A stretch of 31,633 bases of DNA from a virus. A program made the position numbers and the translations under genes. Below, piece after piece: positions 1,855-28,025 of the stretch. Each line of letters begins with the position of its first letter. Positions within the stretch are counted from its first letter, which is position 1. The stretch is from IMG/VR virus record IMGVR_UViG_3300019471_000061, positions 1-31,633 of that record; one strand, 5' to 3'. A model generated the notes under the pieces. The model worked only from the letters and a program-made list of their open reading frames with translations, searched no databases and was not told the DNA's origin.

Positions 1855-2141
1855 AATGCGCTCTGAGCTTGAAGCTCTCTTCTTAATATTTCAGCGTCGA
1901 GAAGATCGTCTTTTTCGATCTTTCTATGCTCGTCTGCTATGACAGAGACTTCGTCGATGATGTCGATGTCTAGCATGATCATTTTCTCGTAGAACCAATC
2001 GCCGAGATCGAATCTGTCGCAGAAGTTCGACAAAGCGTCGTCTTTGTTTATACATAAATCTAAGGCGAGCTCGTCTAATTCTTCAGATGACTTGTCGAAC
2101 AGTACCTCTGTCAATATGCTCGTTATCATTTTGTTATTCAT
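1851..2141 (-). CDS. Hypothetical acidic protein
   Basis: ORF track. It is tightly packed between RecT and the membrane protein with overlapping start and stop. Confidence 0.5.
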   Translation of the reverse strand: MNNKMITSILTEVLFDKSSEELDELALDLCINKDDALSNFCDRFDLGDWFYEKMIMLDIDIIDEVSVIADEHRKIEKDDLLDAEILRRELQAQSAL

Positions 2142-2916
2142 TTACGTCCTCCAGAACAACTTCGGCTTCTTCAATCTCTAGTGATGAGCCAGGCTTGTTG
2201 TCTGCGTATTCGTCATTGACTTTTTGATCCTCAACGATCGCTGTTTGCATTTCAACGCTTAGAGGTGCGTAGCGACTCAAGAGTAGTTTCAGAACTGTCT
2301 TTTTCGCCATAGCTTCAAAATTATCTTTCCAAACTCCAAAGCCTCGCTTAAATGTCTGACTGTATTTTTGAGCGTGCTTCTCAAGCTCTTCGTTTGTCAT
2401 GAACTCAGCTTTACGGAAGCCGTTCAGTAAGATGAAGTAAGCCATATAGCCGATCACTTTACCTTCTTTTTCTACTTGAAAATTAAACTTCGGCTCGCCA
2501 GTAAAACTGTCTACTCCAGCAAATTCATTTTCATAAACTGCTCGCGTTCCCAAACTCTGGAACTGTCCCGTTTTCATAGCCAGCTGCACGAATCCGCGCC
2601 AGCCCATTTGAAATTGAGCTTCCATTTTACCCTTATTTGAATAAGGTACGATGTAAGCAAATCCGAGATTTTGGTTGATCGGTAAGTCTAGCGTTGCTGC
2701 TGTTAAACAAGCGTTGTAGGTTGTCATTGGATTGCATTCAGCGATCTTCTTGTCGCTATTTGCTAGCGCCAAAACACTTGTCAGAAACTGCCTGCCTTTT
2801 TCACCGAGCGTACGCTCAGCCGATTTCATAATCTCGTCTGATTTTACTAATTGCTGTAAAGTCAGCGGTGCGTTATCTGTTTTTTGAACTGCTACCCCTG
2901 TCACTATTAGCTCCAA
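2134..2916 (-). CDS. recT: RecT-family single-strand annealing recombinase
   Basis: Core GFAYIVPY...AQFQMGWRGFVQLAMKTGQ is typical of RecT/Redbeta-like SSAPs. It is paired with an upstream exonuclease. Confidence 0.75.
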   Translation of the reverse strand: MELIVTGVAVQKTDNAPLTLQQLVKSDEIMKSAERTLGEKGRQFLTSVLALANSDKKIAECNPMTTYNACLTAATLDLPINQNLGFAYIVPYSNKGKMEAQFQMGWRGFVQLAMKTGQFQSLGTRAVYENEFAGVDSFTGEPKFNFQVEKEGKVIGYMAYFILLNGFRKAEFMTNEELEKHAQKYSQTFKRGFGVWKDNFEAMAKKTVLKLLLSRYAPLSVEMQTAIVEDQKVNDEYADNKPGSSLEIEEAEVVLEDVNE

Positions 2917-3665
2917 TCTCCAAGAACGAGGATGTCGTCCATCGTCTGGTTTAAGTTAAAGTTTAATTTATCTCTGTCGGTTTCGCCTTCTCGTTTGTCG
3001 AACTCTTTTATCGCGCTCACGACCTTTTCGAGTTTTTGGAATCCGCTATCGATGAATTCTGGCGATGCTACAGCCACGCCGACTCGATAAGGAGCGACGG
3101 TTTCCGCTACAACCCAGTAAAATTCTTTACTCTCAATTTTAGCGATTAATGAATAAACAGCTGCTTGAAGATCGTAATCGTTGCGGCCGCTCGTCCATTT
3201 GAAGTCATCGAATTGAGCAGTAGTCTTTAAGTCAACTCCATATTTTACTTCATCGCCAATTACACCGAGCGAATCAGCATAGCCAATCCAATCCTTTTTC
3301 TCAATTTTCGCTTTAAGTTTAACTTCGTGATGCGTATTTTCACCAAGTAGCAATTTACTTGCTAACGGATGACTCTTAATCCGTTCAGCTATTGTACAGA
3401 TTGTTTCAAATTCGGATTCGTCGATAATCGGTAGAACTTGCGCGTCGCGCCATTCCCTCGCCTCTTTTGATCGATAATCTGAGTATTGCTTAACTACGAA
3501 TTCCTGTTTGCCACCGAGCAAATGAGCGTGAACTAAAGTTCCTAAATCTAAAGCTCTGCTCGTAGGTTTTTCGATAACACCAAGCTTAAGAGCCACGGCG
3601 TAATCGATCCCTTTGCGATAAATATTCTTCGCCATTGAGTAGCTAAAATGGTTGATGTTATCCAT
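2907..3665 (-). CDS. PD-(D/E)XK (RecB/Cas4-like) exonuclease, partner of RecT
   Basis: Motifs GTLVHAHL, GYADSLGVIGDE, VDLKTT (the D/ExK motif) and QAAVY (the QxxxY motif) are present. It overlaps recT. Confidence 0.7.
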   Translation of the reverse strand: MDNINHFSYSMAKNIYRKGIDYAVALKLGVIEKPTSRALDLGTLVHAHLLGGKQEFVVKQYSDYRSKEAREWRDAQVLPIIDESEFETICTIAERIKSHPLASKLLLGENTHHEVKLKAKIEKKDWIGYADSLGVIGDEVKYGVDLKTTAQFDDFKWTSGRNDYDLQAAVYSLIAKIESKEFYWVVAETVAPYRVGVAVASPEFIDSGFQKLEKVVSAIKEFDKREGETDRDKLNFNLNQTMDDILVLGDWS

Positions 3666-3689
3666 TATTTAACCTCTCTTTTCTCTAAA

Positions 3690-3835
3690 TTGTCAGAGGC
3701 CTGCCGACCCTCAAGGTTGTCGGTGTCGCGAACACCCAGCGGATTTTCACCGCCAGCTTCCAGTCGTGAGCGCTCGCAGTCGCTCACGACTTCTTCGCCT
3801 TTACCCAGCGTTCGGCAAAACACTGACAATTTAGT
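3690..3835 (-). promoter_or_regulatory. GC-rich, highly structured 5' leader of the exonuclease-recT operon. Candidate regulatory RNA
   Basis: It contains a 10-bp perfect stem, gtcgtgagcg-N8-cgctcacgac, at 3761..3788. The outer inverted repeat is aattgtcag / ctgacaatt. About 60% GC, against about 43% for the genome. It lies between a TTGACC-N17-TAAATT candidate promoter and the RBS agagagg. Confidence 0.4.
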
Positions 3836-3934
3836 TAACGTTTATATTCAGGTCAAATTGTTAAGCTACAATGCTCTATTTTCGATTATTTTGTCTATGA
3901 AGTTATCTGTAGGATAGATAGCCTCATTTGACAA

Positions 3935-3990
3935 AATAAAAGACCAACGAAATGCTGGTCTAATAAAAAAGACTCGCATTTCTGCGAATC
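3935..3990 (-). terminator. Tandem intrinsic terminators downstream of tRNA-Thr on the minus strand
   Basis: gattcgcagaaatgcgagtc followed by TTTTTTATT, and agaccagcatttcgttggtct followed by TTTTATTTTG. Confidence 0.6.
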
Positions 3991-4000
3991 TACGTATTTA

Positions 4001-4076
4001 TGGAGCCACGATCGGGACTTGAACCCGAGACCTACGCCTTACCATGGCGTCGCTCTACCAACTGAGCTATCGCGGC
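4001..4076 (-). tRNA. trnT: tRNA-Thr, anticodon GGU, with an encoded CCA
   Basis: Manual fold of GCCGCGA-TA-GCTCAGTTGGTAGAGC-G-ACGCC-ATGGTAA-GGCGT-AGGTC-TCGGG-TTCAAGT-CCCGA-TCGTGGC-T-CCA. All four stems pair and the anticodon loop contains GGT. Confidence 0.85.
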
Positions 4077-4336
4077 ATCTGATTTATTAATAATATGCCC
4101 GAGTCAGCGTAAAACGTCCACAGTAAGCGTTGTAGCTTACCACGGTAGCGCTCATCCATGTAATAATTACAGTAAATGATTTCTACCATTGTAGATTTCG
4201 TAAGGTTAGAGGTTTCAACGTACACATTGCGAAGGCTCTGTGCACATCGCAATCATATGTTCCTATATTAGCAAACAAGAGCTATTTTGTCAATAGCTTA
4301 AGCGCAATTAAATAAAGATTCTATAGATTTATTAAA

Positions 4337-5206
4337 TTAGGCGACAGCTCCTATCTTTAATCTGTCATAAACATTTATCATTCCGCTATCAAGCGCGTGC
4401 AGATAAACTTCAGTCGTTGCAGAATTCGAGTGTCGCAATAATCTCTGTGCTTGTGAGATTGACGCGCCACGCTTCTGAATATCTGTAGCGAAGCTGTGCC
4501 TCAGCGCGTGCAGGTAGAATCCGTCAATTCCTACTTTTTCGAATTCTCGACGCATTTTATATCTAAGCTCGTCAATACTATACGGCCGTCCGTCTTCATA
4601 AGCTGGAGATATCCATAAATAATCTGTAATTCCTTTGAAGACGATCCACTCATCCATCCACTTTTTCGTGCGAGGCGTCATGAAGACTACCCCTGCTTTA
4701 TTTCCTTTTCCGATAATGTGAATTTCTCGACCGCTTATATTCTTAAGCCGTAAATTTCTTAATTCTGTAGCGCGCAATCCTGAATCGAACGCTAGAGATA
4801 TCAATAATCGCGTCATAGGTTCAGCATTCTCAATAACTTTCTCGACTTGATCGCGTGTGAACCAATTTCGACGCGGAGGTTTCTCTTTCGCTGGCTCAAT
4901 TAGTCTAATTTTTACGGATATGTCGTAATCCATATCTCTCAAGTATTTCAAAAAAGCTATTATGTGGCTGAGCCTGCTATTAATAGTTCTACCTGAGACT
5001 ACGTTTCCAGTAGCCGCTCCAGACGACTGCATCGCCATCCATCTATTAATATCTCTATTCGTTAATTTCTGCATATCGTCAACAATTTCTAGTTCCGCGA
5101 ATTTATTAAGCACTCTAACTTTCGTATCCATTGTCTGCTCTGTAAACTGACGAGCTCGACAATAATTCAAGTACTCTTCGATTTGCTCATAAATAGGTTT
5201 ATTCAT
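4337..5206 (-). CDS. int: Tyrosine recombinase or integrase, XerC/D-sized at 289 aa
   Basis: R..HxxR..Y catalytic signature: LRATELRNLRL, HALRHSFAT, LRHSNSATTEVYLHAL. It sits adjacent to a tRNA gene. Confidence 0.85.
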   Translation of the reverse strand: MNKPIYEQIEEYLNYCRARQFTEQTMDTKVRVLNKFAELEIVDDMQKLTNRDINRWMAMQSSGAATGNVVSGRTINSRLSHIIAFLKYLRDMDYDISVKIRLIEPAKEKPPRRNWFTRDQVEKVIENAEPMTRLLISLAFDSGLRATELRNLRLKNISGREIHIIGKGNKAGVVFMTPRTKKWMDEWIVFKGITDYLWISPAYEDGRPYSIDELRYKMRREFEKVGIDGFYLHALRHSFATDIQKRGASISQAQRLLRHSNSATTEVYLHALDSGMINVYDRLKIGAVA

Positions 5207-9721: not shown

Positions 9722-10666
9722 CTAAATCGTACCTACAGCGATCCAACTTATGCCGTGATTTGCACCACCGAAAATGCCTGAAGTAGAAGCCGTGATAGTG
9801 GTGCCTGTTTGACTAAACGATCCACACTCGATATTTGTGCCAGCGCCGATTTTCTGATCGAAACTTGCTGGAGATGTTGGCGTGTTTCGCGTATATCCGA
9901 TTAAAGTCGGAATGACTGCATATACTTCCTTGAATTTTTTAGGAAAATTAACCTGTACAGCTTGTTGTTTTCCGCCATTTCCATAAAATGACACCCAGCC
10001 CGATTGAATAACTAGCGAACCAGAGACAGCCTGTGCTGAGTTATTAGCGCTAAATGACAGCATATCAGTAGTCTTAAGTTTCTGTGGTAGGATTGAACCA
10101 TCTTTAATATTCTTTGATTCTATAGTACCATCTGAAATTAAATTAGCATTATTTATTCTGCCGTTTGGCAAGGTCGTCATTTTTCGCAAGTCGGTGATGT
10201 CATTACTGCTAATCGCTGTTGCTCCAGCGCGCTTTTTGACTCTAGCTAGTATAATAAATGGATTTGACGCACCAATCGCCGCCTGAATTGCGGAATTTGT
10301 TGGATCGGCTGGATTTGACGCTGCAGCTCCAGAGATAGCTTTTAACTTAAATACGTCATTAGTATTATCTGTTACAGATTGGTCCCCTGCTACATTTCTA
10401 TCGACATAAGCTACAATAACCGCATTTATAGGATTTGAAGGAGACGCTGCTCCGACATTAACCGTTTCTGTTCCGATAACATTTATATTGTAAGATGGAT
10501 CACGCCCAACAAGCGCAGTGCCTGCGTTGACTGTGACATTCATTCCACTTCCAGCCACTACATCTAATCCATCTGCCACTTCTCCGCTTAAAGCATCGCG
10601 TATAAGTTGTGTTAGTGCTGCAGGACTGTGCATTCCTCCGCCGTAATTGAAAACTCGCCTTGTCAT
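9722..10666 (-). CDS. Tail fibre or receptor-binding protein with an H-type-lectin-like C-terminal domain. The true ATG is at 10666, with RBS ggaaaggtag
   Basis: Gly/Ser/Thr/Asn-rich beta-type sequence. It is the last gene of the tail module. The C-terminus resembles the 6019 cassette. Confidence 0.7.
   Translation of the reverse strand: MTRRVFNYGGGMHSPAALTQLIRDALSGEVADGLDVVAGSGMNVTVNAGTALVGRDPSYNINVIGTETVNVGAASPSNPINAVIVAYVDRNVAGDQSVTDNTNDVFKLKAISGAAASNPADPTNSAIQAAIGASNPFIILARVKKRAGATAISSNDITDLRKMTTLPNGRINNANLISDGTIESKNIKDGSILPQKLKTTDMLSFSANNSAQAVSGSLVIQSGWVSFYGNGGKQQAVQVNFPKKFKEVYAVIPTLIGYTRNTPTSPASFDQKIGAGTNIECGSFSQTGTTITASTSGIFGGANHGISWIAVGTI
10077..10095. repeat. Right 19-bp inverted repeat, AGTTTCTGTGGTAGGATTG, inside the fibre gene
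   Basis: Reverse complement of 9357..9375. It sits at the boundary between the constant and variable parts of the fibre. Confidence 0.85.
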
Positions 10667-10705
10667 AATTCTACCTTTCCGCGCCGCCAGAAGGGCTGAA
10701 TAAGA

Positions 10706-10751
10706 AAAAATTGCCACCAAGCGGTCGCAATTTATTACTATAATTATATCA
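10706..10751 (-). promoter_or_regulatory. Late promoter-hairpin element, copy 1 (TGATATAAT...AATTGCGACCgcttGGTGGCAATT-UUUUUCUU), upstream of the fibre gene
   Basis: Reverse complement of 10700..10752. Confidence 0.5.
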
Positions 10752-11178
10752 CATTAAGTGAACCTCGACCCGTCGCTATGACGAAAAACTTAATCTTGAC
10801 CACTTCATTTCCAAAATATTCAACTCGCACTGTGAATTTCTGATTTTTTGGGTCTGAGACGAATTGACCGATAGTGTTTATCGATAGTTGAGCGTTTGGC
10901 GCGCCAACAATTTCGTATTTTGCGCGTACGGATAATCCAGCTACATTTTTATCTGAGTGAAATATCACGTTAAACTCTTTTCCTTGCAATCCATTCGGCA
11001 TCGTCGGTAGCTGTTGTGAGTAATCCCAATTAGAATTTGTCGATATTTTAAATACTTTAACGGCGTCAGCTCCGACAATTTGACGCTCTTTTTTTTCACG
11101 CTGACATCTCTCTAGTTGTTTTAATTCGTATAAAATGTCAGGTTCTGATTCAAGCCTATTTACTGCCACGGCGTCCAC
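10744..11178 (-). CDS. Baseplate or receptor-binding-associated protein, one of a paralogous trio
   Basis: N-terminal coiled coil followed by a beta-rich C-terminus. It shares S.NS.WD...PNG motifs with the 11160 and 11596 proteins. Confidence 0.45.
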   Translation of the reverse strand: MDAVAVNRLESEPDILYELKQLERCQREKKERQIVGADAVKVFKISTNSNWDYSQQLPTMPNGLQGKEFNVIFHSDKNVAGLSVRAKYEIVGAPNAQLSINTIGQFVSDPKNQKFTVRVEYFGNEVVKIKFFVIATGRGSLNVI

Positions 11179-11603
11179 TCCTCAAAACTAATATCGCACG
11201 CGTCATTAGCGATAATCTGAAACTTTAAGTTTATCGGCTGACCCATTGTGCCAAAAATTGGAACAAACCATTTCATCACGTTGTTTTGAGACGGCGACAG
11301 AGGTATTCCTATGACTGAATAAACTGCATTAAGCGCGCTTGATTGAATCGCTAGTCTGCCTACTAAATTTCCGCTATTTTTTGACCTAGCAGTAACTATA
11401 ACCACAGTCCAACCCTCGCCATTAGCGACCTGCCCTGGTCTGTTTGGAGCGACAGACATATCCCACTGAGAATTAGAAGCGGATAACTTCATTTTAATTT
11501 GATCACCGCCGATAATTTGACGCGTTTTTTCGTCGTTCATTTCTCTTTTAATACTGGCGATTTCGTCTATAATATCTCCAACGTTAATTCTGCTTCTACT
11601 CAT
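11160..11603 (-). CDS. Baseplate or receptor-binding-associated protein, paralog
   Basis: See 10744..11178. It starts MSR, like the 11596 protein. Confidence 0.45.
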   Translation of the reverse strand: MSRSRINVGDIIDEIASIKREMNDEKTRQIIGGDQIKMKLSASNSQWDMSVAPNRPGQVANGEGWTVVIVTARSKNSGNLVGRLAIQSSALNAVYSVIGIPLSPSQNNVMKWFVPIFGTMGQPINLKFQIIANDACDISFEEWTPWQ

Positions 11604-12171
11604 ACGAGACCACCGTGATTTTAGTTTTTCCGCGGTCAGTACTGCGCACTCGAAACCTCATTTTTAAGTATTCTCCAGAGCTACTGCCGACACCATAGTT
11701 GACGTTAGTTTCGTATTTATAAATTAACTTTTTTGCGCCGTAATCGGTCTTGTCTATCAAATATTCAGCGGATAAGATGCTCGTGAAGCTACTATCTCTA
11801 TTTGTGAATACCAGCCCTAAAGATGGCGAATAAAACGGCTCCCATCGCTGATTTCCTAGCATAATATCTAGAAATGGATAAACGACTGGCGAGTTTTGAT
11901 TGGCTGGCTCGAATATTGTTGTTATAGCCAGGAGTCTCATATTCAGCGGTCCGCCAGTGTTAGTTAATAGCACTTTGTCGGTCGTAGTTGACGAGCCTCT
12001 GCGCACGAATTCAAAAGTATCCCAGTTTTCGCTATTAGGCGATTGATATGTGCGAACACCAGACGTAACACTAGTCGGTTGTGATATTAGTTTTGAATCT
12101 GCGTGATTGGCTCTGATTCTAGATAGAACACCGACTATATTCTGCTCTTCTAATTCTGTCAATCTGCTCAT
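11596..12171 (-). CDS. Baseplate or receptor-binding-associated protein, paralog
   Basis: Shares the PNSENWD motif with its neighbours. Confidence 0.45.
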   Translation of the reverse strand: MSRLTELEEQNIVGVLSRIRANHADSKLISQPTSVTSGVRTYQSPNSENWDTFEFVRRGSSTTTDKVLLTNTGGPLNMRLLAITTIFEPANQNSPVVYPFLDIMLGNQRWEPFYSPSLGLVFTNRDSSFTSILSAEYLIDKTDYGAKKLIYKYETNVNYGVGSSSGEYLKMRFRVRSTDRGKTKITVVSYE

Positions 12172-16587: not shown

Positions 16588-16632
16588 AAAATTGCGACAC
16601 AAGATCGCAATTTATTACTTGTATTATACCAA
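16588..16632 (-). promoter_or_regulatory. Late promoter-hairpin element, copy 2 (TGGTATAAT-N10-AAUUGCGAucuugugUCGCAAUU-UUUCUUUUG)
   Basis: 8-bp perfect stem. It overlaps, back to back, the plus-strand promoter of the nuclease gene. Confidence 0.5.
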
Positions 16633-16653: not shown

Positions 16654-17667
16654 ATGAAGTCTACAATATCGCCAATTGATAAAAAGAATGTTAATTTTGA
16701 GTTGGAAGAATTATTTCCTGCTTGGTTTTACATTATAGCTATTATATTTTTCATATGTCGGCTACCGAGCGGTCTTATGGATGCTATATCGAGCACTTTT
16801 ATGATTTCGAGCGTTTTACTACTAGGAAATGTCGCTTTTAAGTGGAAAAAGCTGAATAATACTTCTCGTATTGTGGCTTTGTGTGTAGTTTTTTGTGCTT
16901 TTTGTGTTGGCGGTGCGCTATCGAATAACAATCACGTGGCTGAACAGCAAAAATCCAATACTCAAACAACTCAGCCAGAGCAAGCTCAAAAACAACCAGA
17001 AAAACAGCCAGAAGCTCCAAAATTTAATCCAGCATTAGCTCAAGACGCAAATTTTCAGCAAGGCGAAAAAGACACTGTAACAGAGGTAATAGATGGTGAT
17101 ACGATTCGCACGTCGAACCACGCCAAAATCCGTCTAGTAGGGCTTGATACACCTGAAACTAAGCACCCGCGCAAGCCCGTCCAGTGTTTTGGCAGAGAAG
17201 CTTCTCAAAAAATGAATGATTTAGTCGCTGGTAAAACGGTTTATTTAGTTGCAGATCCTACTCAAAGCAGCAAAGACAAATATGGACGAGATTTATTCTA
17301 TATTTATCTAGAAGACGGCACGAACGTAGCTTATACGATGATTCGCGAAGGCTACGGTCATGAATACACGTATAATTCTAATCCTCACAAATGGCAAGCG
17401 CAGTTCCAAGAAGCTCAGAGAATAGCTATACAAGAAAATAAGGGCTTGTGGGCGGCAAATACGTGTGGCGGCAACACCGAAAAGCCAGCAGATCAACAAG
17501 CGCAACCTGCTCCAGCTCAAAATCAGTCTGCTGATGGTGTAACATTTAGCAGTTGTCGAGAAGCTCGCGCTGCTGGATATAGCAATATGCGTCGTGGCGA
17601 ACCTGGATATTCGCCAGATTTAGACAGAGATGGCGACGGAGTTGCTTGCGAAAGTCGTAGAAGATAG
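16654..17667 (+). CDS. Membrane-anchored extracellular thermonuclease: N-terminal TM helices, an SNase domain and a C-terminal Excalibur Ca-binding domain
   Basis: VIDGDTIR...IRLVGLDTPE SNase signature. C-terminal DLDRDGDGVACE Excalibur motif. Plus-strand promoter TTGTAT-N16-TATAAT, with the ATG 7 nt after the -10, so the mRNA is leaderless. Confidence 0.8.
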   Translation: MKSTISPIDKKNVNFELEELFPAWFYIIAIIFFICRLPSGLMDAISSTFMISSVLLLGNVAFKWKKLNNTSRIVALCVVFCAFCVGGALSNNNHVAEQQKSNTQTTQPEQAQKQPEKQPEAPKFNPALAQDANFQQGEKDTVTEVIDGDTIRTSNHAKIRLVGLDTPETKHPRKPVQCFGREASQKMNDLVAGKTVYLVADPTQSSKDKYGRDLFYIYLEDGTNVAYTMIREGYGHEYTYNSNPHKWQAQFQEAQRIAIQENKGLWAANTCGGNTEKPADQQAQPAPAQNQSADGVTFSSCREARAAGYSNMRRGEPGYSPDLDRDGDGVACESRRR

Positions 17668-18749: not shown

Positions 18750-18797
18750 GAAAAATTGCGATCTTCGAGACCGCAATTTGTTAATTTAATTATACCA
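18750..18797 (-). promoter_or_regulatory. Late promoter-hairpin element, copy 3 (TGGTATAAT...AAUUGCGGUCucgaaGAUCGCAAUU-UUUCUUUG)
   Basis: 10-bp stem with one G-U pair. Confidence 0.5.
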
Positions 18798-23035: not shown

Positions 23036-23083
23036 GAAAATTGCGATCACATACGATCGCAATTCATTAACGCTATTATATCA
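23036..23083 (-). promoter_or_regulatory. Late promoter-hairpin element, copy 4 (TGATATAAT-N10-AAUUGCGAUCguauguGAUCGCAAUU-UUUCUUUUG)
   Basis: 10-bp perfect stem. Confidence 0.5.
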
Positions 23084-25919: not shown

Positions 25920-27450
25920 CGAAATCCGATTCTGACCAATCATCATCTTTTGACGCGTACGAGCCACTTTCGTCAAATCCTTCTTCACCTTGATTTAACC
26001 CATCGACGAGCAACATTCGAATCGCATATACAATCGCGTCAACCATGTCGTCGTGTGTTCCTTTTGGAAATTCTATTAGCTGTTCTCTTAAAGCTTGTCC
26101 GTTTTGGATATCTTTAACTAGGAACACTTTCCCAGCCTCAAAGAATCTGCTGACAGCTAATAGTCGTCGCACCTTGTCTTTGTCTGGTTTCAATCCAATG
26201 ACAGGTAATCCTGCCAATAGGTCGCGGAATACTAATCCTAGCGCGCCCTGCTCAATTCCGACAACTTGCGGTTGATATGTTTCGTAGAGATTTTTAATAG
26301 TCTCTGCTGTTATGCTTGGTGATGTTCGCTGATTTCGAATTGCTCTCACGTAAACGTTGCCGTCAGCTCCTAAGTCCGCGACAATCATAGCCGTCGGGTC
26401 GGCAGTCTGTCTTTCGCTCGCGGCAGGATCAACTGTCAGCACTCTAGCTTGACGAGAATATTCGTCTGGTGCTTGGCTCGGCTCGCACTCTTTAATCCAG
26501 TCGGGCTTGACTATCGCATCTTCTTCACTGAATGGCTTGTGCTGATATTCCTGTGCAAAAGCAATGCTTCCGACAAACTCTTGATCATTTGGATTGTCGC
26601 GCATAGATTTTAGCTTTTCGAGGCTGCGATGCTCTGGCCACAAAGCGTGTTCAGTGCCGTCCTCATCAGTTGTGATTGCGTAAAATACTCGTGTTTGCCA
26701 ACTTTTGAAAATATCTTGCTGTTTCATTACTTTATTGACGAGGCTGTCGAAATGAAGAATCGTGCCGATAACGACAGCTCGTCCACCTCTTGCCAGTGCT
26801 GGAATAGCTGCTTTAGTGAACCAATGATAAAGCTTCTGGCGTTGCTCAGCGCTCTTGATATTTTCGTCGTTCTCGATGTCGTCAAATATCATCAGCGTCG
26901 GACGGGTGTGCCTGTGTCGAATACCGCGGATTTTCATACCCGAACCCTTAGCGGCGTATTTAATGCCGTTGCTCAACACGAATTCGCCATCTTGCCAGTC
27001 GTCGCCCTTCATATTCCCGAATAACCATTTAATTTTCGGATTATTCTCGAACTCATCTTTAAGCGCATTGATGAACTCTGCAGCTTGAGTGTATGTGTCG
27101 CTGATTATCACTATGAATTCTTCTTGTTCAAAACAACCAGCCCACAGAGGGTATGTCATGTCTACTGTTGTCGACTTCGCGTGTCCACGTGGCGCAATAA
27201 CGCCTATGCGTCGATTATTCTTATCACTGATTAAGTCTAATATCTCTTTATGAAACGGTGGTGTTTCTAGTGGAAAATATGGTCGGGCGATGAACCAACC
27301 AAACAAATGAATGTTTTCGCGCCTCTTAAATATCGCTAATAGGTACTGTCGGAGCTTATCTCTATCCGTTTCCCAGTACTTTTCGCATAGTCGTACAATG
27401 TCTTTCCTGGTCAGATTATTCAAAGATTGCTGCTCGGAGTTCTTCGTCAT
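25912..27450 (-). CDS. terL: Terminase large subunit
   Basis: Walker A, VIAPRGHAKST. Walker B, LMIFDDIE. C-terminal RNaseH-like nuclease region (VLTVDPAAS...IVADLGADG). Confidence 0.9.
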   Translation of the reverse strand: MTKNSEQQSLNNLTRKDIVRLCEKYWETDRDKLRQYLLAIFKRRENIHLFGWFIARPYFPLETPPFHKEILDLISDKNNRRIGVIAPRGHAKSTTVDMTYPLWAGCFEQEEFIVIISDTYTQAAEFINALKDEFENNPKIKWLFGNMKGDDWQDGEFVLSNGIKYAAKGSGMKIRGIRHRHTRPTLMIFDDIENDENIKSAEQRQKLYHWFTKAAIPALARGGRAVVIGTILHFDSLVNKVMKQQDIFKSWQTRVFYAITTDEDGTEHALWPEHRSLEKLKSMRDNPNDQEFVGSIAFAQEYQHKPFSEEDAIVKPDWIKECEPSQAPDEYSRQARVLTVDPAASERQTADPTAMIVADLGADGNVYVRAIRNQRTSPSITAETIKNLYETYQPQVVGIEQGALGLVFRDLLAGLPVIGLKPDKDKVRRLLAVSRFFEAGKVFLVKDIQNGQALREQLIEFPKGTHDDMVDAIVYAIRMLLVDGLNQGEEGFDESGSYASKDDDWSESDFVI

Positions 27451-27904: not shown

Positions 27905-27948
27905 AAAAAGCGGACCTTTCGATCCGCAATCCTATGGCTATTATAGCA
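27905..27948 (-). promoter_or_regulatory. Late promoter-hairpin element, copy 6 (TGCTATAAT...GCGGAUcgaaagGUCCGC-UUUUUGUUU), upstream of terS
   Basis: Reverse complement of 27901..27950. Confidence 0.45.
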
Positions 27949-28025
27949 TAAAAGAGGCGGCACATAATTCGCCACCGCCCCTTCAAACTTTTTAGGTGCA
28001 CACATATCATTGACGTTTGCGCCTA

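Follow-up and report, generated by a model that had tools for sequence, protein, structure and literature searches.

The IMG/VR virus record IMGVR_UViG_3300019471_000061 carries a GC-rich segment of around 150 nt, situated downstream of the early-promoter region and ahead of the first ribosome-binding site (RBS) of an operon that begins with an exonuclease gene and recT. The question raised by this locus is whether the segment acts as an RNA, as a DNA site or as a coding sequence, and what it does ahead of the early genes. The stretch analysed here (positions 1 to 31,633 of the record, hereafter the window) constitutes the complete genome of a temperate siphovirus of around 31.6 kb with nearly all genes on the minus strand. 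The segment (3685..3834, minus strand; hereafter the element) is a conserved folded non-coding RNA of around 150 nt that fits no catalogued family, and it is very probably a functional structured RNA within the early leader, probably one that governs how the early operon is read. Its predicted form is a four-way junction, referred to as the type A leader, which is supported by folding energy, by the consensus of 18 homologues, by a covariance model and by base composition. A preliminary description of the locus had proposed a structured non-coding element on the strand transcribed toward the exonuclease and recT, acting as a regulatory leader. The structure and its strand are supported by fold stability, covariation and strand asymmetry, whereas a leader specific to recT and a thermosensor did not hold.

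Concerning base composition, the 150 nt from 3685 to 3834 are the GC-richest of the whole 31.6 kb (56-57% versus 41.9% window-wide; 99.9th percentile), such that the GC contrast first described persists with corrected figures (formerly around 60% versus around 43%). The central inverted repeat comprises 11 bp (3762-3772 / 3781-3791) with 100% complementarity and a spacer or loop of 8 nt; it had been given with the same loop and a perfect stem, but at 10 bp. Equally, the outer inverted repeat CTAAATTGTCAG, formerly noted as 9 bp, is perfect over 12 bp (3685-3696 / 3823-3834), and its arms extend to 23 nt at 83% complementarity. The motif CCGAC...GTCGG, likewise proposed as a stem, exists in the sequence (3705-3709 / 3720-3724), but its bases pair elsewhere in the consensus fold. 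As RNA, the minus strand reaches a minimum free energy of -71.3 kcal/mol, compared with -49.9 +/- 3.9 kcal/mol in dinucleotide shuffles (z = -5.5, the values for this strand ranging from -5.5 to -6.5), and none of 200 shuffles was as good. Because the region is palindromic, the plus strand folds strongly too (z = -6.6).

Homologues were sought by pattern scans of viral, metagenome and genome collections and by exact-protein look-ups. The full element was found in 27 loci, representing 18 distinct sequences, and the genomic context is identical in all of them; the loci L012, L023, L029, L032 and L083 were rejected as chance matches. Mean column identity in the alignment of the 18 distinct sequences amounts to 95%; 24 of its 31 variable columns fall in predicted stems, and the differences are largely compensatory. 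The consensus structure obtained with RNAalifold contains 53 pairs, in which 99.2% of the cells are standard pairs. The comparison of related phages for compensatory base changes, suggested in the preliminary description, was productive: double-sided changes occur in 8 pairs over the 18 homologues. Shuffling the columns gives 4.1 +/- 1.2 such pairs, with none of 500 shuffles attaining 8, and registers slid by 1-3 columns yield 0-2. A covariance model (R1) built from the type A alignment scores the element at 191 bits and finds exactly one copy per genome.

In the consensus fold, an outer helix P1 of 12 bp is continued by P1b/P1c and leads into a four-way junction that bears P2/P3, P4 and P5 (all coordinates of these helices refer to the minus strand). 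The 5' arm of P1, CUAAAUUGUCAG (3823..3834), pairs perfectly over 12 bp with the 3' arm CUGACAAUUUAG (3685..3696), which is supported by the inverted repeat, by the consensus fold and by covariation. Double changes are found in three pairs of P1 (U-A to C-G, A-U to G-C, U-A to C-G), together with G·U intermediates, all of them paired. The 5' strand of P1b/P1c (3803..3821), including UGCCGA and CUGGGU, pairs in the consensus fold with the 3' strand beginning with ACCUUGAGGGUCGGCAGG (3698..3717), which includes the GTCGG mentioned above. These two helices are nearly invariant, and their changes are one-sided only (G-C to G·U, U·G to U-A) and lend them little independent support. P2 (3 bp, GGC/GCU; 3755..3799 together with a conserved GAAGA / GGAA internal loop at the base of P3) belongs to the consensus fold and is invariant. 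P3 (3762..3791) is the central 11-bp hairpin, for which the perfect inverted repeat and covariation both speak, and its 8-nt loop ACUGCGAG (3773..3780) is invariant. The P4 hairpin of the consensus fold (GGCGG-UGAAAAU-CCGCU, 5 bp with a 7-nt loop; 3738..3754) has an invariant stem, thus providing no covariation evidence, and a loop that accepts U/C, A/G and an insertion of 1 nt. The P5 hairpin (GGUGUU-CGC-GACACC; 3722..3736), also drawn from the consensus fold, exhibits one double-change pair (U-A to C-G), which carries three mismatched cells, and a 1-nt indel in its loop. Covariation is hence found in P1, in P3 and at one pair of P5; P1b/P1c, P2 and P4 are predicted, not proven, because they are invariant or vary on one side only. 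The unpaired nucleotides of the junction and of the loops are almost invariant.

The alignment also indicates on which strand the structure resides. If the opposite strand is read, the proportion of cells that pair falls from 99.2% to 86.5%, and at the variable pairs 280 of 288 cells are paired on the transcript strand, versus 231 of 288 on the opposite one. Given this asymmetry and the many G·U intermediates, the structure belongs to the sense (transcribed) strand. A palindromic operator in double-stranded DNA would be expected to show conserved arms and a free spacer; the covarying arms around an invariant, asymmetric loop therefore make such an operator unlikely.

A coding function was rejected. 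The 54-aa open reading frame (ORF) on the sense strand (3665..3829, minus) contains stop codons in 15 of the 18 variants, and the antisense frame of 89 aa is hit by 1-nt indels; this plus-strand ORF exists but is not conserved in relatives, in agreement with the earlier judgement that no plausible ORF is present. Concerning catalogued RNAs, only the tRNA passes the gathering score when the window is scanned with Rfam 15, and the stretch 3640..3900 yields no match even at E<=10, C4 and 6S included, such that the Rfam scan first suggested assigned the element to no family. Likewise, blastn of the element and of a 1-kb region against 50,697 phage records returned only tRNA matches. A retron msr-msd was discarded as well, since all ORFs of at least 250 aa are assigned elsewhere and there is no reverse transcriptase.

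Beyond the 27 loci with the full element, one part of it has a much wider distribution. In 34 loci of more distant RecT phages, with a RecT of 80-92% identity, the covariance model found no full-length element and matched the P3 hairpin only. A hairpin with the loop ACUGCGAG and a G-C / Y-R / G-C top is present in more than 80 loci (52 distinct contexts), among them the shorter leaders of around 40 related phage contigs. These shorter leaders are of two types, B1 and B2, in both of which the hairpin is situated around 12 nt before the RBS of a small membrane-protein gene. B1 leaders retain a linear tract GGCGAAGA; in B2 leaders, the stem sequence of P4 recurs in a hairpin that is situated upstream of the P3-like one. 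The Rfam scan of a type B leader gave sub-threshold noise only. Among 16 distinct P3 hairpins of types A and B, double changes occur in 7 of the 11 pairs, and 97.2% of the cells are paired, compared with 80.6% in shuffles. The loop never changes across these 16 hairpins and two leader architectures, which shows that it is under strong purifying selection; it is the best candidate for a recognition site, and the recurrence of the hairpin in the shorter leaders of related phages suggests that P3 is probably the functional core. By eye, a pairing between the P3 loop and the P5 loop (GCGAG with UUCGC or CUCGC) appears possible; only one of the columns involved varies, and type B leaders have no P5.

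Concerning its position, the element is always situated between the early-promoter region and the first RBS, and it fills that gap in all three leader types. Directly upstream of P1 lies a conserved block TATAAACGTTAA (3835..3846, minus strand) with a candidate -10 TATAAA (3846..3841). This block, (T/A)ATA(T/C)AAACGT(T/A)AA, is kept in all type A loci and also in L007 and L008, relatives without the element, in which the RBS follows the block directly. The sharing of the block with these two loci suggests a -10 at 3846..3841 and a transcription start around 3836-3834, and the sequence comparison suggests that the element is a 150-nt insertion between +1 and the RBS. Type B leaders keep only AAACGT of the block, and no good -35 is conserved. 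The promoter first proposed (TTGACC-N17-TAAATT; 3828..3856, minus strand) is present in the window with 9 of 12 matches and overlaps P1, but it is not conserved: relatives have TTAGCC or TTGGCT in place of the -35 and CCAAGT or CTAAGT at the -10 position, and no similar promoter was called in L001, L009 or L010. As its -10 lies within P1, which covaries as an RNA helix, transcription is concluded to start upstream of 3834. At the other end, the 3' arm of P1 terminates 5 nt ahead of the purine-rich Shine-Dalgarno tract AGAGAGG (3679..3673; one base away from the position first given for this RBS), which together with the ATG (3665..3663) of the exonuclease gene forms a start region (3663..3679, minus strand) that is unpaired with the element. 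Upstream of the element, terminators, a tRNA and the integrase gene are found, and no gene is situated between the promoter region and the element.

Missing at the corresponding position in L007 and L008, and bounded by perfect inverted repeats of 12 bp, the GC-rich block might also represent a selfish or neutral palindromic insertion without a function of its own, similar to a miniature inverted-repeat transposable element (MITE) or a repetitive extragenic palindrome (REP). A check with the terminal-repeat pattern and internal 20-mers revealed one copy per genome, and the true matches from the metagenome, genome and viral scans are all located in the same phage context. As all 27 type A loci carry the element once and in one and the same context, with no copy elsewhere in host or phage DNA, and as its terminal repeats covary through G·U on one strand only and its internal loops are invariant, such an insertion is exceedingly improbable.

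A structure of single-stranded DNA (ssDNA), i.e., a hairpin or cloverleaf on the sense strand that would be a replication origin, a place of priming or primosome assembly, or a target of the recombination proteins, has somewhat more in its favour. G·T wobbles are tolerated in ssDNA hairpins too, and the strand asymmetry is thus compatible with DNA; the phage possesses no recognisable replication initiator, primase or helicase, and the element adjoins an AT-rich region. However, there are no direct repeats or iterons in 3800..4000 and no DnaA box nearby, and GC skew is uniformly negative without a switch, such that the origin-like element of the preliminary description found no positive support. 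Considering further that the element exactly fills the gap between promoter block and RBS in all three leader types, and that it is not linked to exonuclease-recT, an ssDNA site appears quite improbable.

This missing linkage becomes apparent from the gene that follows. In the window it is the exonuclease; in L002 and L021 it is a fusion of PD-(D/E)XK and FtsK domains (PDDEXK-FtsK), followed by a different RecT, and in L010 a small membrane protein. Copies of the element that precede the fusion or the small membrane-protein gene are identical or near-identical, whereas L007 and L008, with an exonuclease of 70% identity, lack it. The element is therefore not a recT-specific leader, and its presumed tie to exonuclease and recT was given up.

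Nor does the element appear to control its own Shine-Dalgarno sequence. It folds on its own, and in none of six contexts does it pair with the Shine-Dalgarno tract, which is unpaired or paired only with coding sequence; a switch occluding this tract, and with it the thermosensor or RBS-occluding riboregulator suggested earlier, was rejected on these grounds. A junction of several helices that is closed by P1 and contains conserved unpaired nucleotides does resemble an aptamer, and a CUCU tract beside the 3' arm of P1 could pair weakly with the AGAG or GGAG purine tract, as might be expected of a riboswitch or RNA thermometer switching the early operon. However, an expression platform is lacking, with neither a terminator directly after the element nor sequestration of the Shine-Dalgarno tract, and the GC-rich helices exclude that tract, contrary to what a thermometer requires. 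Adding that no Rfam family matches at E<=10, that the element is confined to one phage lineage and that type B relatives have no junction, this type of switch is very unlikely.

In one of the two main alternatives to the mechanism favoured below, the leader would be an operator or stabiliser of the mRNA, bound by a phage or host RNA-binding protein or RNase chiefly at the P3 hairpin, which lies 12-35 nt upstream of the Shine-Dalgarno tract. The bound factor would set translation initiation or half-life of the early mRNA, and the closed stem at the 5' terminus would protect against 5'-end-dependent decay. Hairpins recognised by proteins classically combine an invariant loop with covarying arms, as seen here, the type B hairpin lies around 12 nt before the RBS, P1 starts at the presumed 5' end, and in a phage without recognisable regulators there are uncharacterised proteins available for such a role. 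Yet neither the downstream gene nor the spacing from the Shine-Dalgarno tract is constant, the structure does not touch this tract, and a simple stabiliser needs neither a four-way junction nor invariant junction nucleotides; an operator or stabiliser is thus a possibility to be kept in mind, though not a likely one.

As the second main alternative, the element could be processed into a trans-acting non-coding RNA whose ends are defined by P1, be it an immunity RNA (as in P4 CI and P1 c4), a 6S-like polymerase binder or an anti-defence decoy. The element has both of its ends paired in one long stem, a feature of many stable RNAs made by processing, it is compact and GC-rich, the phage has no recognisable protein repressor, and the phages P4 and P1 provide a precedent for immunity RNAs in early-operon leaders. 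On the other hand, neither a terminator nor a recognisable processing site is present 3' of P1, and Rfam C4 and 6S do not match at E<=10. As a kissing or antisense target, the P3 loop would require a complement, and no CUCGCAGU occurs on the transcript strand genome-wide. A processed RNA of this kind is therefore improbable.

The leading guess, put forward tentatively and drawn from the combined analysis, is that the leader serves processive antitermination by binding a factor or the polymerase. The early promoter would transcribe the element first, and the folded RNA, via the P3 loop and the conserved junction nucleotides, would bind the elongating polymerase directly or a phage or host factor. 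The transcription complex would thereby become resistant to terminators, as with HK022 put, lambda nut/N and pLS20 conAn2. Only transcripts from the early promoter would then pass the conserved intrinsic terminators along the nearly unidirectional 30-kb array, and spurious or read-in transcription, e.g., from the strong promoter of the upstream tRNA, would be stopped. Antitermination is favoured because the element lacks an expression platform and shows no preference for a particular downstream gene, and because the long unidirectional array contains around twice the expected number of terminator-like hairpins, some of them positionally conserved. It is further favoured because two terminators insulate the operon from the tRNA promoter, which matches the logic proposed for conAn, and because putL and conAn2 constitute precedents at the same kind of position. 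Concerning the numbers, the genome is transcribed almost wholly in one direction and contains 51 terminator-like hairpins, compared with around 27 in shuffles (around twofold); the sense-strand terminator sites at 27976 and 25897 are positionally conserved in the diverged relative L010. That the folded leader alone reprogrammes the polymerase of the Nanosynbacter host (see below), independently of protein or minimally assisted, and acting in cis like put or in trans after release, is a more specific version and a doubtful one. If it were true, the element would represent a new structural class of polymerase-binding antitermination RNA.

Several observations speak against antitermination. No terminator is predicted within the early operon, the first ones being situated around 7 kb downstream, before terS. 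Type B phages keep only P3 and other small hairpins, such that most of the 150-nt fold is dispensable there. The element is confined to one phage lineage, and the covariation is drawn from close sequences with the high column identity given above. Promoter and start are inferred, and sigma-70 promoter scans of the relatives revealed no conserved promoter and no convincing consensus. By eye, no boxA is seen in 3685..3850. Compared with put, which comprises around 70 nt and two stem-loops, the element with its 150 nt and four-way junction is differently built, and no sequence similarity was seen. Finally, the junction before terS (27910..27976, minus strand) consists of a terminator (GGTGGC...GCCGCC with a T-run), followed by a perfect extended -10 (TGcTATAAT) and, 12 nt past it, by a second terminator GCGGATCgaaagGTCCGC with a T-run that abuts the terS RBS. 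This layout is conserved in L010 (3780..3843) and resembles lambda pR'-tR', which suggests a separate Q-like factor for the late genes.

The late operon also contains a family of hairpins, AAATTGCGATC-loop-GATCGCAATTT with a T-run, in three intergenic copies on the minus strand (23038..23065, 18753..18779 and 16589..16613), which may be regulated terminators or processing sites. Their motif ATTGCG(G)ATC recurs in the terminator proximal to terS.

Concerning the genome as a whole, the packaging and head genes comprise the small and large terminase, portal, protease and major head protein, and they are accompanied by tail genes, tape measure, Dit and an endolysin with Amidase_5 and ZoocinA_TRD domains. 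The integration and early end is arranged in the order integrase, tRNA-Thr(GGT), terminators, AT-rich region, element, exonuclease, RecT and many small orphan genes. The tyrosine integrase is encoded at 4337..5206. The first early gene in the window encodes a PD-(D/E)XK (DUF3799) exonuclease (2907..3665, minus strand; Pfam PF12684, E = 3.4e-16), and the next one the RecT single-strand annealing protein (2134..2916, minus strand; Pfam PF03837, E = 3.1e-45). Neither Pfam nor PHROGs revealed a recognisable repressor, Cro, N/Q-like antiterminator, excisionase, replication initiator, primase, helicase or reverse transcriptase; the regulatory and replication modules are made of orphan genes. In the sibling phages L002 (5737..7596) and L021 (around 10258..12122), the exonuclease is replaced by the fusion mentioned above, a protein of 619 aa with an N-terminal PD-(D/E)XK domain and an FtsK/SpoIIIE-type ATPase, and the RecT that follows is divergent (25% identical), which constitutes an unusual recombination module. 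In the tail region, one of the few plus-strand ORFs (16654..17667; 337 aa), which has nuclease/endonuclease PHROG matches, is enclosed by bidirectional terminators and has the appearance of a moron or defence-type insertion.

The tRNA-Thr(GGT) (4001..4076, minus strand) is a full-length copy in the attachment-site region and corresponds to the host tRNA in integrated prophages. It possesses a strong promoter, TTGACA-17-TGnTAATAT (4265..4293, minus strand), and is followed by two tandem intrinsic terminators (3941..3991, minus strand; conserved in L001 and L009), which insulate the early operon from tRNA transcription. Between these terminators and the element, in the AT-rich region, lies a long imperfect palindrome, TTATTTTGTC AAATGAGGCTATCT atcctac AGATAACTTCATA GACAAAATAA (3886..3939). 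Relatives retain this palindrome with changes in both of its arms; it could be an operator for a regulator or part of attP.

In the metagenomic contigs L011, L015 and L021, the phage is integrated, and the element is situated around 170 nt downstream of the chromosomal tRNA-Thr(GGT), which follows tRNA-Thr(TGT) and tRNA-Tyr. The host genes upstream in L021 (rpoA, L17, S9 and others) fall into clusters whose named members are Candidatus Nanosynbacter, ultra-small human oral Saccharibacteria (TM7), which places the host in the Candidate Phyla Radiation. Host and attachment site are thereby established, the phage inserting at the tRNA-Thr(GGT) of Nanosynbacter. A contig of 33.5 kb binned into a metagenome-assembled genome of an uncultured Candidatus Saccharibacteria (L031, CAUSYU010000006.1) amounts in essence to the phage studied here, in agreement with this host assignment.

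Hardly any work exists on phages that infect Saccharibacteria or other members of the Candidate Phyla Radiation. An RNA that is backed by covariation and heads the early operon offers a testable handle on prophage induction and gene expression, and since cultivated co-cultures of oral Nanosynbacter with their hosts exist, the system is tractable. The element constitutes a candidate new RNA family with around 80 members. If the folded leader itself reprogrammes the polymerase, this RNA would decide whether transcription from the early promoter crosses a terminator-studded 30-kb genome, and would act as a switch of the lytic programme in a phage without recognisable repressor, Cro, N or Q. Very few antitermination RNAs are listed so far (put, EAR, conAn2), and an RNA acting on the polymerase would give them a third architecture; if it binds a protein instead, the invariant 8-nt loop would be a ready bait for that protein.

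Structured leader RNAs that act in cis on an early operon of a phage are a known kind of object, to which the element belongs; it is unlike any catalogued family in sequence or architecture. Among the known systems, put of phage HK022 suppresses termination in cis through the zinc-binding domain of the beta' subunit of RNA polymerase. The putL site is situated directly downstream of PL and works without protein (PMC9378689). Both put and the element are structured RNAs near an early promoter, ahead of the first gene and without expression platform, the promoter and start being predicted in the present case, and both would act on the polymerase and not on one gene, which is an experimental result for put and a conjecture for the element (PMC9378689). 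Besides the differences in size and fold already mentioned, put is present in two copies per genome, the element in one, within a phage whose host is a Saccharibacterium. A second copy of the putR type was sought with the covariance model and none was found; at 26481..26490 the loop sequence nearly recurs, but without a hairpin.

A further likeness exists to conAn2 of pLS20-type conjugative plasmids, a large antitermination RNA that heads the long operon of a Gram-positive mobile element; besides stem-loops and an essential core rich in GC, it possesses inverted repeats at its flanks (PMC8191782). Like the element, it is large and non-coding and stands first in a very long operon that runs in one direction and contains internal terminators (PMC8191782). 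However, conAn2 comprises around 280 nt, works together with the protein ConAn1, which is encoded just upstream, and its flanking repeats are dispensable, whereas the flanking repeat of the element covaries as a helix, no gene precedes it and no ConAn1-like protein was identified; a bipartite system of the conAn type was therefore rejected, as no gene for such a protein is situated immediately upstream.

With lambda nut/N, the element shares an early-leader hairpin with a conserved loop and a variable stem at a short distance from the promoter, and the conserved linear tract GGCGAAGA sits 5' of this hairpin. The boxB hairpin consists of a 5-bp stem and a pentaloop, whereas the hairpin studied here has 11 bp and an 8-nt loop and is accompanied by neither a boxA consensus nor a recognisable protein of the N family; a lambda-type nut site was accordingly dismissed. 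The P4 CI and P1/P7 c4 RNAs (Rfam C4, RF01695) differ in the Rfam match and in the complementary targets of the loop, both of which the element lacks. They resemble it as regulatory RNAs that reside in the untranslated leader of the operon they control, in phages without a classical repressor.

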